Below, in pieces: positions 32,997-55,320 of a stretch of DNA of 64,000 nt. The position numbers and the translations under genes are program-made. Numbering within the stretch: position 1 is the first letter of the stretch; every line of letters starts with the position of its first letter. The stretch is taken from IMG/VR virus record IMGVR_UViG_3300036784_000146, positions 79,611-143,610 of that record. One strand, given 5' to 3'. The stretch is from a virus. Lineage: Duplodnaviria > Caudoviricetes. The notes under the pieces are model-generated. The model worked only from the letters and a program-made list of their open reading frames with translations, did no database searches and was not told the DNA's origin.

Positions 32997-34029
32997 CGGC
33001 TTCGTCAAGGAAGGACGCACCCGGGCGCTGACCTACCTGGCTGGGATCACTCCGGCATCAGAGCTGTACCCGCTAGGGCGTGGCTCCGGTGCTGACGTCT
33101 ACGACGAGTACGGGGCTGTCTTCCTGGACTTCGCCATAGGCACCCAGCTGCTGTTCGGTCATCGCGATCCGGCAGTCGCCGAGCGGATTCTGGTCCAGAT
33201 CCAGCACCACACCTGGCAGGGCGGTTACGGCCAGTACCAGGACCGGCTGGTGAGCGAGTTCGCCGAGCAGCTGTCGTCGCGGTTCCCCGCCGATCAGGGC
33301 ACTCCCAAGCAGGTGTGCTTCGTGTCCAGCGTCTACGAGGCGCGCACGGTGGCCGCCAACATCTGCCTGCCGCCAGCGGCCGGGGGTGCGTACTTCCTGA
33401 CCCTGCTGGATCCCCAAGGCAATCCCCGCGAGGGTGGCGAGATCCAGGACGATGTGCATCGGGCCCGCGCCCAAGGGCTGAAGATTGTCGCCGACGAGGT
33501 CGACACCGGCTGGGGGCGCACCGGCACGTTCTGCTTCTACGAGCAGTACCACACGGTGCCCGACGTGGTGATCCTGGACAGTGCCGGGATGGCCGGGATC
33601 CCGTCGGCGGCGGTGATCGCCGGACGCCATTTGTTTGAGGGGCCCGCATTTCTTACGGTGCGTAAGCACATCGAGCTGGTGCCCAACCCGTTGGCGTGTG
33701 CAGCCGGATCGTCACTGCTGGAACGGATCACGCCGGAGTTGATGAAGCATGTCGAAACGTTGGGGGCGGTGCTGCGTTCCGAATTAGACTCGGTGTGTGG
33801 CCAGTTTGGCCACGTCCTGACTGGTTCCTCGGGAGCCGGTCTGGTGCGGACGATCAGGCTTGCCGTCCCCTCCCGGGCCGACGAGTTCCGAGCATTCTGC
33901 CGCAACGCAGGGTTACTGATCCAGCCGAACCTCCGGCTAACCCCACCACTGACGGTGACCGAGAAACAGGTCAGGGGCGCGGTGGACGCCGTTGCAGCGG
34001 CGTGCATCGACATGGGTGGTGTGTTGTGA
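32968..34029 (+). CDS. Class III aminotransferase-fold protein, degenerate (Schiff-base lysine apparently absent)
   Basis: 'RGSG..VYDE.G..FLDF...LFGH', 'IVADEVDTGWGRTG', 'NPLACAA', 'LRLTPPL'. Confidence 0.8.
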   Translation: MDQKSKELIDGFVKEGRTRALTYLAGITPASELYPLGRGSGADVYDEYGAVFLDFAIGTQLLFGHRDPAVAERILVQIQHHTWQGGYGQYQDRLVSEFAEQLSSRFPADQGTPKQVCFVSSVYEARTVAANICLPPAAGGAYFLTLLDPQGNPREGGEIQDDVHRARAQGLKIVADEVDTGWGRTGTFCFYEQYHTVPDVVILDSAGMAGIPSAAVIAGRHLFEGPAFLTVRKHIELVPNPLACAAGSSLLERITPELMKHVETLGAVLRSELDSVCGQFGHVLTGSSGAGLVRTIRLAVPSRADEFRAFCRNAGLLIQPNLRLTPPLTVTEKQVRGAVDAVAAACIDMGGVL

Positions 34030-37215: not shown

Positions 37216-38303
37216 CAGACGTCGGCATGCAGTCGCTCTCCGAGCGCCGTTGGTATTACCGCTACCTCAACGCGTTGGACGCGCGCGAGGTGCTCGACCA
37301 CTACGGCGCCGAGAACATCACCGAGATGCCCGGCGGGGAGGGCACCACCGAGCTGGTGCACAGCTGCTTGCTGGACCGGGTGGATCCGCACCACAAGAAC
37401 GGGGACGCCCACCCCAGTGCGTCGGTCAACGTCGAGAAGCGCAAGTTCATCTGCTACGCCAGCAAGTGGCGCGGAGACCTGTTCCACCTGGTGATGAAGA
37501 TGGAGGGCAAGGAGTCCTTCTCCGATGCCCTACTGGCCGTCTCCGATCTGATCCACGCCGGGCCCGACGACGAGCAGGGCTTCAGGGCCAAGCTCACTCG
37601 GACGATGTCGAAGCCGGGCATGTACGCCATCGCGCCTCCGGACTACGGGCTGAGCATCCTCAACCCGTGGCGCCAGTGGTCGATGCCGCATCCCTACCTC
37701 AGCTCGCGCGGCATCACCGAGGAGGCGGTCGAGCTACTGCAGCTGGGCTGGGACGACCAGGACAATCGCATCGTGTTCCCGCACTTTTTCGAGGGCAAGC
37801 TGGTCGGCTTCCAGAAGCGGGCCATTCCCGCCGGTCCGACCTGGCCGCCGACGGCCGAGCCGGAACCCAAGTACCGCAGCAGCCTGGGCTTCCCGAAGGC
37901 TGAGACGCTCTACGGCTACGACCGGGCTCGCAACGCCAAGCTGGGCAACGTGATCGTGGTCGAGTCGCCGTTCAGCGTGGCCAAGGCCCACAGCCTGGGT
38001 CTTCCTCTCCCTGTGGTGGCGACGTTCGGGGCCAAGGTCACCGACAACCAGCTGGCGCTGCTCAACAACTTCGATCTCGTCAGGGTGTGGTTCGACGACG
38101 ATCCGGCCGGACGTTCCGGGGAGCGGCACATCGTCGAGAACTTGGGAATGAACAAGGTCCTAGTCGTCGAGCCGGACCCGGGAATGGATCTGGCCGACTA
38201 CGATACGAAAGAGCACGTCCAAGCAAAGCTCGCGCAGGCCGTACCCGCGTTCATGAAGCGGGCGCAGTACGACACCGTGGGCCTTCGAAGGAGCATGAAA
38301 TAA
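37212..38303 (+). CDS. DNA primase (Zn-binding plus Toprim)
   Basis: H...HPSASVN...FIC Zn domain; RIVFP, PKY, LYG, VVES, WFDDDPAG Toprim motifs; follows DnaB. Confidence 0.88.
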   Translation: MTDVGMQSLSERRWYYRYLNALDAREVLDHYGAENITEMPGGEGTTELVHSCLLDRVDPHHKNGDAHPSASVNVEKRKFICYASKWRGDLFHLVMKMEGKESFSDALLAVSDLIHAGPDDEQGFRAKLTRTMSKPGMYAIAPPDYGLSILNPWRQWSMPHPYLSSRGITEEAVELLQLGWDDQDNRIVFPHFFEGKLVGFQKRAIPAGPTWPPTAEPEPKYRSSLGFPKAETLYGYDRARNAKLGNVIVVESPFSVAKAHSLGLPLPVVATFGAKVTDNQLALLNNFDLVRVWFDDDPAGRSGERHIVENLGMNKVLVVEPDPGMDLADYDTKEHVQAKLAQAVPAFMKRAQYDTVGLRRSMK

Positions 38304-51009: not shown

Positions 51010-52073
51010 TGGCGTCGAGCCCGCTAGCTCAGGTTGACGCCAGCTCGTTCGACCAGGCTGGTGTTTCGGTGGCCACCGCCACCCGTAGCGCTTCCAACTC
51101 TCGGCTGGGGACCTTCTATGACAACACGACGATGGCGGCGGGGGCATTGGTACACGTGCACCCAATCTCCTCCTCCCAGTTTCTGGCAGCCTTCGCCCGA
51201 CGTTGGACCACCGCCACCCCCTCGCCGACACAAGCGGGCTACTTCAGCGCCCACACCGAAGACCTCACTCCCACGTGGTTCATCCTGGGCGCTTCTGGTG
51301 CTCGCACTCTTGTGGCCTCCTCCCCGGCGATTCCGATCGCCACACCTGGGCTGGGTAGCCCGACGCTTGTGGACGGCACGTCGCTCGCGGACTACGTCTT
51401 CCTGCTGCACTCCACCGCCACCGGCGGACTGATTCAGCACTTCCGGGTGGCCACCGCCGGGCGTGTGGTGCCTGTCGGCGAGGAGGTCATCCCCAACCTG
51501 GTCAGCCAGGGGGTCTCCTTCGACAAGGGCCTGGCGGTGGACAACAACTACATCACCGCGTTCGGCACCGACGCTGACGGCAACGTCTACCGGGCCCGCA
51601 AGCCCTCTGGTCAGATCGGGGGCACCTACGCCCAGAGCGCGACGGCCGCCGTCAGCCAGCTGCCTCTGGTGTGGCAGTACGGCACCGGTAGCGGCTGGGA
51701 CTCCAACCCGGCTCACGGGGCGCCGGAGGCTGGCCTGAACAGCCTGGGCCCGGTGAGCCACGTGCGCTGGCGGCGCACCCACTACCTGTCCACCGTCGCC
51801 AACTCGGGTGGCAACCAGGTGAGCCAGATCTACTCCCGGTACCCGAGCAGGCCCTGGACCAAAGTGGGTGCGCCGATCCCGCTGGGCTCCGGCGCCAACT
51901 ACCTGGGTGGTACCGCGCAACTGCAGTCCAACCTGCTGGCACCTTCGGCCATGATCAACACCCCGGCCAGCGAAACGGCCATCCCGTACGTGACGTCGAC
52001 CAAGGTCCCCTCCGGTGCGTTGAACGCCATCCACACCGCTTGGAATCTGCTGCAGATCCCTCGTCAAACTTAA
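51009..52073 (+). CDS. Hypothetical beta-rich protein (possibly virion-associated)
   Basis: 354 aa, Ser/Thr/Gly-rich. Confidence 0.6.
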   Translation: MASSPLAQVDASSFDQAGVSVATATRSASNSRLGTFYDNTTMAAGALVHVHPISSSQFLAAFARRWTTATPSPTQAGYFSAHTEDLTPTWFILGASGARTLVASSPAIPIATPGLGSPTLVDGTSLADYVFLLHSTATGGLIQHFRVATAGRVVPVGEEVIPNLVSQGVSFDKGLAVDNNYITAFGTDADGNVYRARKPSGQIGGTYAQSATAAVSQLPLVWQYGTGSGWDSNPAHGAPEAGLNSLGPVSHVRWRRTHYLSTVANSGGNQVSQIYSRYPSRPWTKVGAPIPLGSGANYLGGTAQLQSNLLAPSAMINTPASETAIPYVTSTKVPSGALNAIHTAWNLLQIPRQT

Positions 52074-52082
52074 CCCGAGGGG

Positions 52083-52112
52083 TTTACTTTTTTCCTCTAA
52101 TTTTGTTATAGT
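52083..52112 (+). promoter_or_regulatory. SigA-like promoter TTTACT-18 bp-TATAGT; leaderless start at ATG 52119
   Basis: Very AT-rich island; the A of the ATG lies 7 nt after the -10; no SD sequence. Confidence 0.75.
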
Positions 52113-52118
52113 CCCTGC

Positions 52119-52802
52119 ATGACAAACACAGAGAAGAAAAAGGCGGTCCCTCCTCCCAATGAGCCACCGCCTCCGGTAATTTCCATCTCCAAGATCGAAG
52201 CGGGCCGGATCCTCGTCCCCATTCGAGGAACCGCTCCGCTGATCATGAACAACTGGTCGGCCAAGGCCAAGCGCCAGATGCTGCTCAACATGCAGGGCGT
52301 GAAGTTGCCCAAGGAGAATAAGGACCCCGAAGCTGAATACCAGTCGGCGTTCTATCTCCTGGACGAGACCGGGCCCGAAGGCGAGAAGCGTTACGGCTTC
52401 CCGTTGATGGCCTTCAAGGAGGCCACGGTCGGTGCGGCCAGGTTCTACACCCGATCGGTGACCATGGTGGCCTTGCGGCAATTTTTGTTCTTCAAAGGCT
52501 GCTACTCCACCTCGGCCAAGCAGCAGCTGGTGGAGATCGTCGGCACACCTGAGCGGCGGGAAGATCCCGTCACCGTGGGCCGAGGTGGCCGGGATCTGCG
52601 GTACCGTCCGGAGTTCTGGCCCTGGCGAGCCACCTTGGACATCTCCTTCGCCAAGACCAATATCGATCAGGAATCGGTGCTTTCCCTGCTCGATGCCGGA
52701 GGTCTGGGTGTCGGCGTGGGCGAGTGGCGTCCGGAGAAGAAGGGCGTCTTCGGCACCTTTGAGGTGGATCCCGACGAGCCCATCGAGGTGCTCAATGGCT
52801 GA
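52119..52802 (+). CDS. RAMP/Cas7-like RNA-binding protein (candidate Vipr-like effector)
   Basis: N-terminal strand 'VPIRGTAPLIM', 'GFPLMAFKEA' (cf. RAMP IPGSSxKG), thumb-like 'VTVGRGGRDLRYRPEF', C-terminal Gly-rich loop 'AGGLGVGVGEWRPEKKGVFGTFEV'; adjacent to a repeat array. Confidence 0.7.
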   Translation: MTNTEKKKAVPPPNEPPPPVISISKIEAGRILVPIRGTAPLIMNNWSAKAKRQMLLNMQGVKLPKENKDPEAEYQSAFYLLDETGPEGEKRYGFPLMAFKEATVGAARFYTRSVTMVALRQFLFFKGCYSTSAKQQLVEIVGTPERREDPVTVGRGGRDLRYRPEFWPWRATLDISFAKTNIDQESVLSLLDAGGLGVGVGEWRPEKKGVFGTFEVDPDEPIEVLNG

Positions 52803-53229
52803 TCTGCGGTCAGTGTTGGTGGACCATTACGAGCGGTTCGGCAGCTTGAAGGATGAGGACCTTGTCAGGGAGGCCACCGTGGCCTCCCATCCTCTCCACG
52901 ATCGTTTTGAATGGGACGATCAGGTCGCCGGACACCAGTACCGTTGCTGGCAGGCTCGACAGCTGGTTAAGACCGTAAAGCAGTCGTTCTCCAACCACGA
53001 CGGCGAGCGCCGCAGCGTGCGGTTCTGGTTATCCAGCTATGAGGCCGGAAATCCAGAAGTCACGGCCGGGACGTTTGAACCGGCCGAGCAAATAATGGCA
53101 GATCCCATTCGGGCAGAGATCGAGTTGCGGTCATGCAAGCGAGCAATCGCTGACCTACGCCGTCGCTATGAGCATCTGGCCGAGTTCAAAGAGCTGGTGC
53201 AGCGGGGGTTGCTCCAAGAAGAAGGGTAG
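52795..53229 (+). CDS. Array-associated accessory protein (144 aa)
   Basis: ATG 52795 overlaps the end of the RAMP-like gene; 'HPLHDRFEWDD..AG.QYR..QARQL' motif; stop codon is 6 bp before the array. Confidence 0.75.
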   Translation: MADLRSVLVDHYERFGSLKDEDLVREATVASHPLHDRFEWDDQVAGHQYRCWQARQLVKTVKQSFSNHDGERRSVRFWLSSYEAGNPEVTAGTFEPAEQIMADPIRAEIELRSCKRAIADLRRRYEHLAEFKELVQRGLLQEEG

Positions 53230-53235
53230 CCACGA

Positions 53236-54210
53236 GGCAGTCATGGCACGGCTCGGTTCCGCGCGTCGGGGCTCGGTAAGGCGTGGCAGGCACGTTCTGG
53301 CCAGGTGTGGCCCGTCGGGGCATGGCAAGGCAGGCGAGGCCAGGCCCGTCGAGGCCTGGCGCGGTCCGGCTAGGCATGGCAGGCGGGGCAAGGCATGGTG
53401 CGGTCGGGCTAGGCAAGGCTGGGCAAGGCAGGCAAGGTACGGCAAGGCGGGGCGCAGCGCGGCCCGGCGAGGCAGGCTTGGTCCGGCCTGGCGTGGTGAG
53501 GCTTGGCCTGGCGTGGCGCGGTTCGGCAAGGCAGGCTCGGCAGAGCATGGTGCGGTCGGGCTAGGCGTGGCGCGGCTTGGCAGGCGCGGCATATCTTGGC
53601 TGGGTACGGCGGGGCAAGGCTGGGTAAGGCAGGCACGGTATGGTGTGGCCGGTTTTGGCTCGGTTTGGCGAGGCTTGGCAGGCTAGTTAGGCAGGGCATT
53701 GCATGTCAAGGCTAGGCATGTCAAGGCAGGCGCGGCTGGTCCAGGCGAGGTACGGATTGGTACGGCACGGTCCGGCAGGCACGGCGTGGTCAGGCAAGGC
53801 GCGGCTAGGCACGGCAACGCAGGCAGGGCTCGGTGCGGTTGGGCGCGGCTTGGTATGGCAAGGCAGTCGCGGCTGGGCACGGCCAGGCAAGTTCTGGCTC
53901 CGGCTAGGCGTGGCATGGCAGGCTCGGTTGGGCTTGTCCAGGCAGGGCGCGGTGTGGTTAGGCGTGACATGGCAGGCAGGGCAAGGTTCGGCTAGTCAGG
54001 GCCCGGCAAGGTCCGTCAAGGCAGGCATGGCAAGGTCAGGCGGGGTGTGGCCTGGCAAGGCGCGGCTAGGCAGGCACGGCTCTGTTCGGCGCGGCGAGGC
54101 AGGGTTACGCACGGCAAGGCAGGCCAGGCATGGCAGGTTGCGTCAGGGCTAGGCAGGGTTTGTCAAGGCAGGCCAGGCGGGGTTAGGCGCGGCTTGTCGG
54201 GGTAGGGTTC
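53236..54210 (+). ncRNA. GGY-NN pentamer array: 20 units of GGCA + (GGY-NN)8-11, about 179 pentamers; candidate guide-RNA array
   Basis: Parsed by hand. Unit starts: 53236, 53285, 53329, 53378, 53427, 53471, 53530, 53579, 53628, 53677, 53725, 53774, 53818, 53862, 53917, 53971, 54020, 54069, 54118, 54167. The repeat structure is certain; the RNA function is inferred. Confidence 0.8.
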
Positions 54211-54222
54211 GGCTGGCGTGGT

Positions 54223-54270
54223 GGGAAGTTGGGGTGAATGCGGCTACAATCGGATTCACCCCAATTTTCC
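54223..54270 (+). terminator. Stem-loop closing the array
   Basis: TTGGGGTGAAT (54229-54239) pairs perfectly with ATTCACCCCAA (54254-54264), extendable to about 17 bp with G-U pairs. Confidence 0.7.
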
Positions 54271-54294
54271 TACAATGAAGGGAGACACACCACC

Positions 54295-55320
54295 GTGAAA
54301 GTCGCCGAGCTGGCAGAGAATCTAGCCAAGCGCAAGGAGAGCCGTCGGATCGTGCGGTTGGGGGACCTGGCCATCCCTGACGACTGTTCATCGATCACGA
54401 TTCCGGCTTCCGAAGACACTCCGGCCGCCCAGTTTTTGCTCGACGAGAAGACTCTTCGGGTGCTGGCCAAGTTTTTGAAGCTGCCTGCGACCTATCTTGA
54501 AGAATGCCCGCCAGATTTTAGGTCGACGACATTGAGGTACTGGCGCGACCGTAAGGGCCATGTCGATGTCGTGCTCGAAGCCGTCGACGACAACGTGACC
54601 GCCCTCTACAGCCCTGGCTTGATGATGCTGCCGGTCGCGCGGGTCGCGCGCATGATCGAGCGCACTTTCAAGCCAGAGGACGATATCCGCCTGCTGCTGC
54701 GCGATGAGCAGGTGTTTCATGTCGACATCACTTCTGACGATTTCAAGATCGAAATCCCCAATCCTCGTCGCATCCCCGGCCGCCCTGAGGTCGGCGACAT
54801 TACCTGCGGCGGCATCCGCTTTTTGGCGTCCCCCAGCAAGGTCAAGGCGCCCAGCGTGTCGCGGTTCCTTCATCGTTTGGTCTGTACCAACGGGATGGTG
54901 ACCGATGCGGCCGAAGACAAGATCGTGATCAAGGGATTGAGTGTGGCTGAGGTCATCGAGTCGATGGAAGAGGCTGCCGATCGGTTGCTGTCCAACATGG
55001 ACGAGCATCTGGACCGCTACAAGGACACGGCTCTTCTGGCTGTGCCTGGTCATCCTTTGTCCTTCGCCGAACAGCTGGGGCACGAGTTCAATGTTCCGCA
55101 GCGTCAGCTGCATGCCATCCTCGACCGGGTGCGTCAGCTCCCCGAGGAGGGCGCCACCGTTTTTGACGTCGCCCAAGCATTCACTTCGGTCGCCAACGAA
55201 GTGCACAACTACGCCGACCGCACCCGCCTACAGACACTGGGTGGCTCATTGGCCCTGGAAGCCCCCAGAATGATCGAGCGTTGCCACACTTGCCAGACTC
55301 TTCTGGTCGAGCACGGTTGA
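54295..55320 (+). CDS. DUF932-like phage protein
   Basis: 'FLHRLVCTNGMV' motif and C-terminal 'TVFDVAQAFTSVA'; GGAGACACAC start motif. Confidence 0.7.
   Translation: MKVAELAENLAKRKESRRIVRLGDLAIPDDCSSITIPASEDTPAAQFLLDEKTLRVLAKFLKLPATYLEECPPDFRSTTLRYWRDRKGHVDVVLEAVDDNVTALYSPGLMMLPVARVARMIERTFKPEDDIRLLLRDEQVFHVDITSDDFKIEIPNPRRIPGRPEVGDITCGGIRFLASPSKVKAPSVSRFLHRLVCTNGMVTDAAEDKIVIKGLSVAEVIESMEEAADRLLSNMDEHLDRYKDTALLAVPGHPLSFAEQLGHEFNVPQRQLHAILDRVRQLPEEGATVFDVAQAFTSVANEVHNYADRTRLQTLGGSLALEAPRMIERCHTCQTLLVEHG

Follow-up and report, generated by a model that had tools for sequence, protein, structure and literature searches.

A probable VIPR operon with a staggered array of 20 guides in a mycobacteriophage-like virus

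RESULTS

Layout of the locus

The window analysed here is a 64-kb stretch of DNA, the final 64 kb of the IMG/VR virus record IMGVR_UViG_3300036784_000146, which comprises 143,610 bp and is estimated to be 96% complete. On its + strand, positions 52083-54273 hold a compact unit consisting of a promoter, an open reading frame (ORF) of 227 aa, an ORF of 144 aa, a G-rich array and a closing hairpin. We interpret this unit, with a probability of about 0.88, as a VIPR (viral interference programmable repeat) operon of a 143.6-kb mycobacteriophage-like virus with myovirus-type tail genes. An earlier annotation made from the letters alone (hereafter the original prediction) had described the same parts, with the 144-aa gene overlapping the 227-aa gene and the array starting 6 nt past the stop, and every part was found where it had been placed. 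The features of the unit are as follows.

52083..52112, + strand: predicted sigma-70-like promoter, TTTACT, 18-nt spacer, TG-extended TATAGT; 9/12 matches; putative function
52119..52802, + strand: vipr, 227 aa, predicted single-RRM RAMP (Cas7/Csm3-like) with thumb and G-loop
52795..53229, + strand: vap-like accessory gene, 144 aa, predicted winged-helix-like N-terminal domain and C-terminal helix of ~40 residues; 8-nt overlap with vipr
53236..54214 (end approximate), + strand: staggered array of 20 GGCA-bounded vrRNA guides, each with 7-11 GGYNN pentamers
53475..53529, + strand: guide 6, 11 pentamers; pentamers 2-10 spell integrase box I at one-base skip
54221..54273 (about), + strand: closing hairpin followed by UUUUCC, -38.4 kcal/mol, z = -5.3

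The promoter is the sole sigma-70-like site within 51500-54800 (3.3 kb), and because its -10 element ends 6 nt upstream of the ATG at 52119, the operon transcript is probably leaderless. At the other end of the unit, none of 200 shuffled sequences folded as well as the closing hairpin, which was not picked up by a simple terminator scan and which is probably the terminator of the operon.

The two proteins of the unit

Searches of Pfam and NCBIfam with the 227-aa protein, Vipr, matched no model, and its sole family match was phrog_4652, a family of unknown function; 2684 homologues were detectable. An AlphaFold (AF2) model built from a 34-sequence alignment reached a pLDDT (predicted local distance difference test) of 88.4 and a pTM (predicted template modelling score) of 0.81. 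A Foldseek search with this model placed Csm3/Cas7 subunits of type III and VII effectors at the top, with E ~1e-5 and a probability of 1.00. VIA-align returned Cmr4 with Z 10.7 and a root-mean-square deviation of 3.4 A over 156 aligned residues, followed by Csm3 with Z 10.6 and 10.3, and RAMPs of CRISPR systems filled all of the top 33 rows. With Csm3, Cmr4 and Cas7 leading two independent structure searches of a model of pLDDT 88, the RAMP/Cas7-like call of the original prediction was upheld; as modelled, Vipr is a minimal single-domain RAMP with a single RRM, a G-loop and a thumb.

When a profile of the 34 Vipr homologues was compared with solved chains, a single sequence match was obtained, to PDB 36pp_D ('SUSP1 Vipr protein', E = 1e-7), and the alignment spans the thumb and G-loop, in the C-terminal third only. 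In the cryo-electron microscopy (cryo-EM) structure of SUSP1, each repeat takes up one protomer, with H17, D177, R138, W178 and R179 holding G1, G2 and Y3 (10.64898/2026.04.26.720927). H17 falls beyond the aligned stretch, and the comparison of residues therefore concerns R138, D177, W178 and R179, which align with R163, E202, W203 and R204 of Vipr here. R163, W203 and R204 are invariant in the Vipr family, and E202 is nearly so.

The 144-aa partner matches phrog_15946; no model of Pfam or NCBIfam matched it, and comparison with solved structures, by sequence and by Foldseek, gave no significant match. Its AF2 model (pLDDT 88.8) combines a 40-residue helix at the C-terminus with an N-terminal domain of three helices plus a wing. 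In 137 of the 149 viral and bacterial loci compared, a homologue of the partner stands next to vipr in the same orientation. From the modelled fold, a DNA-binding vap, as the accessory genes of VIPR systems are called, is a plausible identity for it.

Grammar of the guide array

G makes up 45% of the bases of the array, and base identity is 0.53 at lag 5, as against 0.18-0.29 at lags 1-3 and 6-8. Longer-range identity peaks lie at lags 44, 49 and 54, which implies a -1 phase slip about once per 50 nt. A dynamic-programming parse resolved 20 units of 7-11 pentamers and 44-59 nt, with 174 pentamers in total, and each unit is preceded by GGCA; one separator reads CGCA, and one unit has an extra irregular tetramer. 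Among the 174 pentamers, G1 is kept in 96%, G2 in 88.5% and Y3 (C or T) in 99%, while all 16 dinucleotides are used at positions 4-5. The GGCA is a GGCAG pentamer whose final G doubles as the first G of the next guide, and this -1 phase slip is the only punctuation between guides. The parse thus reproduced the constant GGY and variable NN, the GGCA phase reset, the 44-59-nt spacing and the count of 20 guides put forward in the original prediction. Its estimate of 16-22 informative nt per guide was correct at the upper end and too high at the lower, the range being 14-22.

Outside the GGY columns, the flanks of the boundaries carry 0.0-0.3 bit at the NN positions in other loci (547 boundaries); in the window array the value reaches 0.9 bit, at the last NN. 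About half of the window guides have AA as their final dinucleotide ahead of GGCA, a bias not seen in other loci. Some guides of the array (window 53240-54210) share decoded dinucleotide sub-strings, of four dinucleotides between guides 1 and 18 and between guides 4 and 7, and of the last three between guides 4 and 8.

Array runs were counted by the published operational definition of at least four YNNGG units. Sixteen of the 17 runs in the window fall in the array on the + strand, and none lies elsewhere on that strand; over the whole genome, 16 of 18 lie within the array and on its strand, which makes it the sole such array in 143.6 kb. Tandem Repeats Finder reported periods of 5 to 59 nt in the array, multiples of 5 leading, and no 24-40-nt direct repeats with spacers, and an Rfam search of the array matched no family or structure. 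These 5-nt-led periods agree with the earlier statement that the array is not a CRISPR.

A related explanation is that the unit is a degenerate or minimal remnant of a CRISPR-Cas system, its array eroded and its Cas7 of type III or IV, as the nearest solved folds to Vipr (Csm3, Cmr4, Csf2 and Cas7) might suggest. We regard such an origin as highly improbable, since the array has periods of 5 to 59 nt and lacks spacer-separated direct repeats, no second RAMP or cas-like gene is present in the unit, neither of its two proteins, which were the ones searched in the window, has a cas match in Pfam or NCBIfam, the two-gene-plus-array unit is conserved in hundreds of loci, and the protein family matches a solved Vipr by sequence and not a Cas7. 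VIPR and the Cas7-family subunits of class 1 systems do share an RRM core, thumb and G-loop, as well as helical polymerisation along the guide with periodic base flipping. However, VIPR flips three guide bases per 5-nt period and Cas7 one per 6-nt period, VIPR addresses double-stranded DNA (dsDNA) with a gapped code, and the VIPR unit has no repeat-spacer array, adaptation genes, or large and small subunits.

Phage context and linkage of vipr to arrays

The phage encodes a baseplate wedge gene and a DnaE-type polymerase, the latter with 49% identity to that of Mycobacterium phage Phrappuccino and 44% to those of cluster-C-like myoviruses. Together with the target of guide 6 in Mycobacterium smegmatis phages (see below), these features make the label 'mycobacterial myovirus', as used in the original prediction, plausible but indirect. 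No close relatives of the phage were found via the gene downstream of the VIPR unit, and megablast of the whole locus against cultured phages gave no match. The longest ORF of that downstream gene (window 54238-55320) begins at an ATG within the terminator hairpin, and the GTG at 54296, behind a purine-rich ribosome-binding site, is the more likely start.

Among 80 IMG/VR loci with a Vipr homologue (40-57% identity), 79 have YNNGG runs by the gene on its own strand and next to none on the other, and the sequence of the sole array-less locus stops at the vipr gene. A check proposed at the outset, whether homologues neighbour GGY arrays, was thereby answered in the affirmative, in line with the frequent presence of the partner given above. 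From the 79 loci 753 guides were parsed; GGCA follows 547 of them, and run lengths peak at 9-10 pentamers. Vipr homologues are present in cultured Gordonia phages (55-57% identity) and in ~27 M. smegmatis phage records (40-43%), as well as in prophages of many Actinomycetota, and more distant ones occur in prophages of other phyla. When ten other large Vipr-bearing phages were compared with the source phage by its DnaE-type polymerase, nine had no match and one had 35% identity. By this sequence measure they are not its relatives, which indicates that the VIPR cassette moves between phage lineages.

Two cultured phages carry staggered GGY-NN arrays over which GenBank annotates a hypothetical-protein coding sequence (CDS). 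In Mycobacterium phage BobaPhett the array (L154:2647-2898, NC_051636.1 ~37847-38098) lies by the Vipr homologue gp52 and under CDS gp51, and in Gordonia phage Pipp (L155:3620-3825, MN234179.1 ~33099-33304) it lies by the homologue gp42 and under CDS gp43. Far larger arrays were also seen in two relatives, of 57 runs and ~290 pentamers at L008:4733-8525 and of 49 runs and ~325 pentamers at L062:5550-8629; both (3-4 kb) reach the end of the sequence examined.

The GenBank annotations raise the question of whether the G-rich stretch, in place of being a guide array, codes for protein or is a DNA repeat with a structural role, for example a satellite prone to G-quadruplexes or a packaging or replication site. 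Gly/Ala/Arg-rich ORFs of 93-172 aa are indeed open across the array on both strands, in keeping with the CDSs of Pipp and BobaPhett. However, no reading frame could be conserved across a 5-nt period that slips by -1, and conservation is confined to GGY, with free use of the two positions that follow. The array also tracks a same-strand RAMP gene in nearly all loci, across lineages without the DnaE-type polymerase of the source phage, and it is only with one skipped base per unit that guides read as conserved motifs from genes of other phages. We therefore give a coding or structural role next to no credence and treat the stretch as a guide array.

Guide 6 appears to be aimed at a tyrosine integrase

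Read at one-base skip, the core of guide 6 (pentamers 2-10, nine dinucleotides) corresponds to codon positions 1-2 of the motif PLVEFLVAS. This core has 15 exact matches in IMG/VR, all in the same motif and frame and all on contigs of 59-70% GC. In the targets, PLVEFLVAS is followed by G-x-R-W-G/S-E, which together form tyrosine recombinase box I with the catalytic arginine. The 15 sites represent 11 distinct DNA sequences that differ at the skipped (wobble) positions only, and the targeted integrases share 42-99% identity (median 51%). Two of the matches are identical to integrase genes annotated in Mycobacterium phages, gp38 of Phrappuccino/Settecandela and gp43 of Nibb, and Nibb-like integrase DNA is carried by 137 M. 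smegmatis phage records; six of the 15 matches are in proviruses. In 566 kb of target genomes, the core gave eight matches at skip 1 and zero at skip 0, 2 or 3 or in shuffled order. The GTDB family that includes Gordonia was sampled with 151 species genomes, and one of these has an exact guide 6 site, within an integrase. Guide 6 has the same sense as the integrase mRNA and could therefore pair with the template DNA strand only, not with that mRNA.

A second array bears on the same enzyme. We compared 496 guides of at least nine pentamers from other loci with the same nine target genomes, and a guide of 14 pentamers at L006:5210 matched integrases at 28/28 positions in two genomes and at 26/28 in a third (G418:993, G423:59587 and G420:60544). 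Decoded, this guide reads HLGHESIQTTVDVY, the box II stretch that includes the catalytic Tyr, in the same integrase family as the guide 6 target. L006 is a different, unrelated phage whose Vipr belongs to the same clade and is 54% identical to that of the window, and a 28-nt exact match, judged from the sequences, is not due to chance. Guide 6 thus appears, on sequence grounds, to be aimed at integrase box I of temperate mycobacteriophages and prophages. Its matches fall in the phage group that the polymerase comparison points to as neighbours of the source phage, and this, together with the L006 convergence, lifts it above chance level.

Other guides and their candidate targets

The other 19 guides, full or end-trimmed, yielded nothing above shuffled controls in 150 vipr loci, the nine target-phage genomes, BobaPhett and the phage's own genome. 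Self-targets in its own 143.6 kb likewise gave no match above shuffled controls, and they are also reported as absent from other VIPRs. Full-length exact guides 6 and 15 had no match in viral or metagenome contigs, full-length exact guide 17 had none in viral contigs, and full-length guide 6 with up to two mismatches had none in 401 genomes from the GTDB family to which a Gordonia metagenome-assembled genome (MAG) belongs. These searches were too strict, since the terminal dinucleotides are unpaired in the guide 6 targets. In the opposite direction, guides of other phages had no match above chance in the source phage genome, and the guides of BobaPhett and Pipp matched nothing in the local target set.

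Two candidate matches were set aside. Guide 4 matched three contigs of 43% GC that form one family, and two of the three have no open frame at the site; we judged this match to be chance. Guide 7 (window 53534-53578) matched 18/18 in 13 viral contigs of 46-56% GC (L203-L217), one of them a giant-virus MAG. This match is in frame and skips the wobble bases of a conserved motif, KATYRAILE, in 132-aa proteins whose family is absent from cultured phages; the context is unlike the likely host, and the match is probably chance as well.

In three other loci, the first guide matches vipr genes of other phages, at 26/28 (L040:4618), 19/20 (L004:4621) and 18/20 (L051:4618). The sites (L097:3541, L008:4543, L009:4534 and L040:4450) lie on either strand, the skipped base being the wobble one, and two of the three guides target a conserved stretch just past the G-loop. 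The L004 first guide matches its own vipr at only 15/20 and that of the window at 17/20. These guides resemble published anti-VIPR guides, and on these matches the one-base-skip code holds in the staggered-array clade.

DISCUSSION

In VIPR systems, as one preprint describes them, phages carry an ancestral RAMP (Vipr) together with an accessory gene (vap) and vrRNAs in which YNNGG is repeated 9-16 times; the NN dinucleotides read dsDNA with one base skipped per unit and thereby silence transcription of competing mobile elements (10.64898/2026.04.26.720920). The same text divides VIPR into seven types and sets out several layouts of the array, 'staggered arrays with overlapping vrRNAs' among them, and the legend of its fig. 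S18 has vrRNA positions overlapping by 1 nt, the end of one being the start of the next. A SUSP1 guide directed at the excision recombinase of its satellite immobilises that rival element (10.64898/2026.10.15.759431), and a fourth preprint recovered 99 clusters of 5-nt-periodic arrays. The original prediction had named VIPR; such systems are indeed published (10.64898/2026.04.26.720920, 10.64898/2026.04.26.720927 and 10.64898/2026.10.15.759431), and the fold, the SUSP1 match, the linkage and the skip code found here fit them. Its picture of a protomer that grips GGY and presents NN for nuclease-free silencing is that of the SUSP1 cryo-EM and reporter results.

Our assignment is based on computed evidence, namely fold, homology, gene-array co-occurrence, array grammar and the sequence match to integrase genes. 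The closest comparison is with type II VIPR (of Escherichia phage SUSP1 and of a Pseudomonas fulva prophage; PDB 36pp), which likewise has a single-RRM RAMP with thumb, G-loop and the GGY-contacting Arg/acidic/Trp/Arg residues, an adjacent small accessory gene, same-strand GGY-NN guides, a phage-borne locus without nuclease, and a one-base skip at wobble positions. The two differ in that the sequences are distant (the profile match noted above), guides have 7-11 pentamers here and 9-16 in type II, and 20 guides form one uninterrupted array here whereas SUSP1 has four. Moreover, each type II vrRNA closes with a structured 3' tail that is invariant and, in the SUSP1 clade, forms a pseudoknot. 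The locus here has none; for this reason we do not file it as type II, and it fits the staggered architecture. The 1-nt GGCAG/G overlap at all 20 of its boundaries, and at 547 of 753 in homologous loci, is exactly that of the staggered vrRNA arrays in the legend of fig. S18. As to the target, SUSP1 vrRNA4, which is directed at the excision recombinase of the F5 satellite, also reads near-invariant codon positions of a rival recombinase and skips wobble bases; it covers 18 bp (6 units) of a satellite recombinase, compared with 27 bp (9 units) of a tyrosine integrase here, where the effect is a predicted one.

By analogy with the SUSP1 and P. fulva work, from which ribonucleoprotein assembly, DNA binding and silencing at the locus are extrapolated, we propose the following model. 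The single promoter would drive vipr, the vap-like partner and a precursor of ~1 kb with 20 guides. Vipr protomers would polymerise on each in-phase run, one per pentamer, with G1, G2 and Y3 sequestered and N4 and N5 exposed. The filament would then read dsDNA with two bases paired and one skipped, so that 7-11 pentamers would span 21-33 bp with the skip usually at the codon wobble, and its binding would block transcription of the bound gene, the locus encoding no nuclease. At least one guide, guide 6, would be directed at integrase box I of temperate mycobacteriophages or prophages, and blocked integrase expression may hinder prophage excision or lysogeny, as SUSP1 does with its satellite recombinase. 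Guide processing would take place at GGCA, a step without precedent. On this analogy, the likely role of the operon is interference with rival mobile elements during infection.

A VIPR-family locus might also work in a manner unlike type II, with the 1-kb RNA left unprocessed as a scaffold for several filaments, with RNA as the target, or with the vap-like protein recruiting a host nuclease to destroy targets. Such a mode would be in keeping with the array having neither a 3' tail nor a ribozyme between guides, with the lack of a significant structural match for the vap-like partner, with the reported ability of Vipr filaments to pair with single-stranded RNA as well (10.64898/2026.04.26.720927), and with staggered arrays not being among the layouts listed as confirmed by small-RNA sequencing (10.64898/2026.04.26.720920). 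We consider it improbable, though, because the target mRNAs of guide 6 and of the L004 anti-vipr guide are in the same sense as the guides and would not pair with them, targets lie on both strands as expected for DNA recognition, Pfam and NCBIfam recognised a nuclease domain in neither protein, and the published VIPR types with DNA-binding vaps act by repression (10.64898/2026.04.26.720920).

Several points weigh against reading the unit as a VIPR operon that acts by repression of the kind modelled above. Nineteen of the 20 window guides have no placed target, and guide 6 matches only 9/11 dinucleotides (82%), the first and last being mismatched in 15/15 targets. An 18-nt gapped pattern yields about one independent chance family in IMG/VR, as the cases of guides 4 and 7 illustrate, and the guide 6 assignment was accordingly made on its host-consistent context and the convergence with L006, not on match counts. 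The fold matches of the partner are weak, residues 1-100 resembling winged-helix proteins at Z 5.2-5.5 and residues 103-144 generic coiled coils. Between guides there is only GGCA and no structured 3' tail, and the absence of a SUSP1-type pseudoknot means that guide maturation may differ; the preprint names small-RNA-seq confirmation only for the ribozyme-interspersed and single-guide layouts (10.64898/2026.04.26.720920). Finally, the source record is an uncultured IMG/VR virus without an assigned host.

The VIPR kind, published in 2026, the skip code and the staggered layout are already in print, and the locus adds another member, as a clean 20-guide example of the staggered, tail-less architecture. 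Its clade has close relatives in cultured phages of M. smegmatis mc2 155 (BobaPhett and ~25 others) and of Gordonia terrae, which makes guide maturation directly approachable in laboratory strains, and the GenBank hypothetical-protein annotations over such arrays can be corrected. What is new here, from the sequence matches, is the apparent targeting of integrases by guide 6 and the L006 guide, which would extend the theme of silencing a rival's recombinase from an E. coli satellite to temperate mycobacteriophages. Two independent arrays on catalytic motifs of one tyrosine-integrase clade tie VIPR to actinobacteriophage biology. We tentatively suggest, as a possibility that we hold to be doubtful, that the register of the Vipr filament, set by the GGCA slip, and not a tail, ribozyme or hairpin, determines guide ends and the cut sites of host RNases, and that the tail-less arrays of large virulent actinophages lock prophages in the chromosome by silencing the catalytic-motif regions of integrases. 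If this is true, guide 6 on box I and the L006 guide on box II would represent a broad anti-prophage strategy on which unrelated phages have converged.

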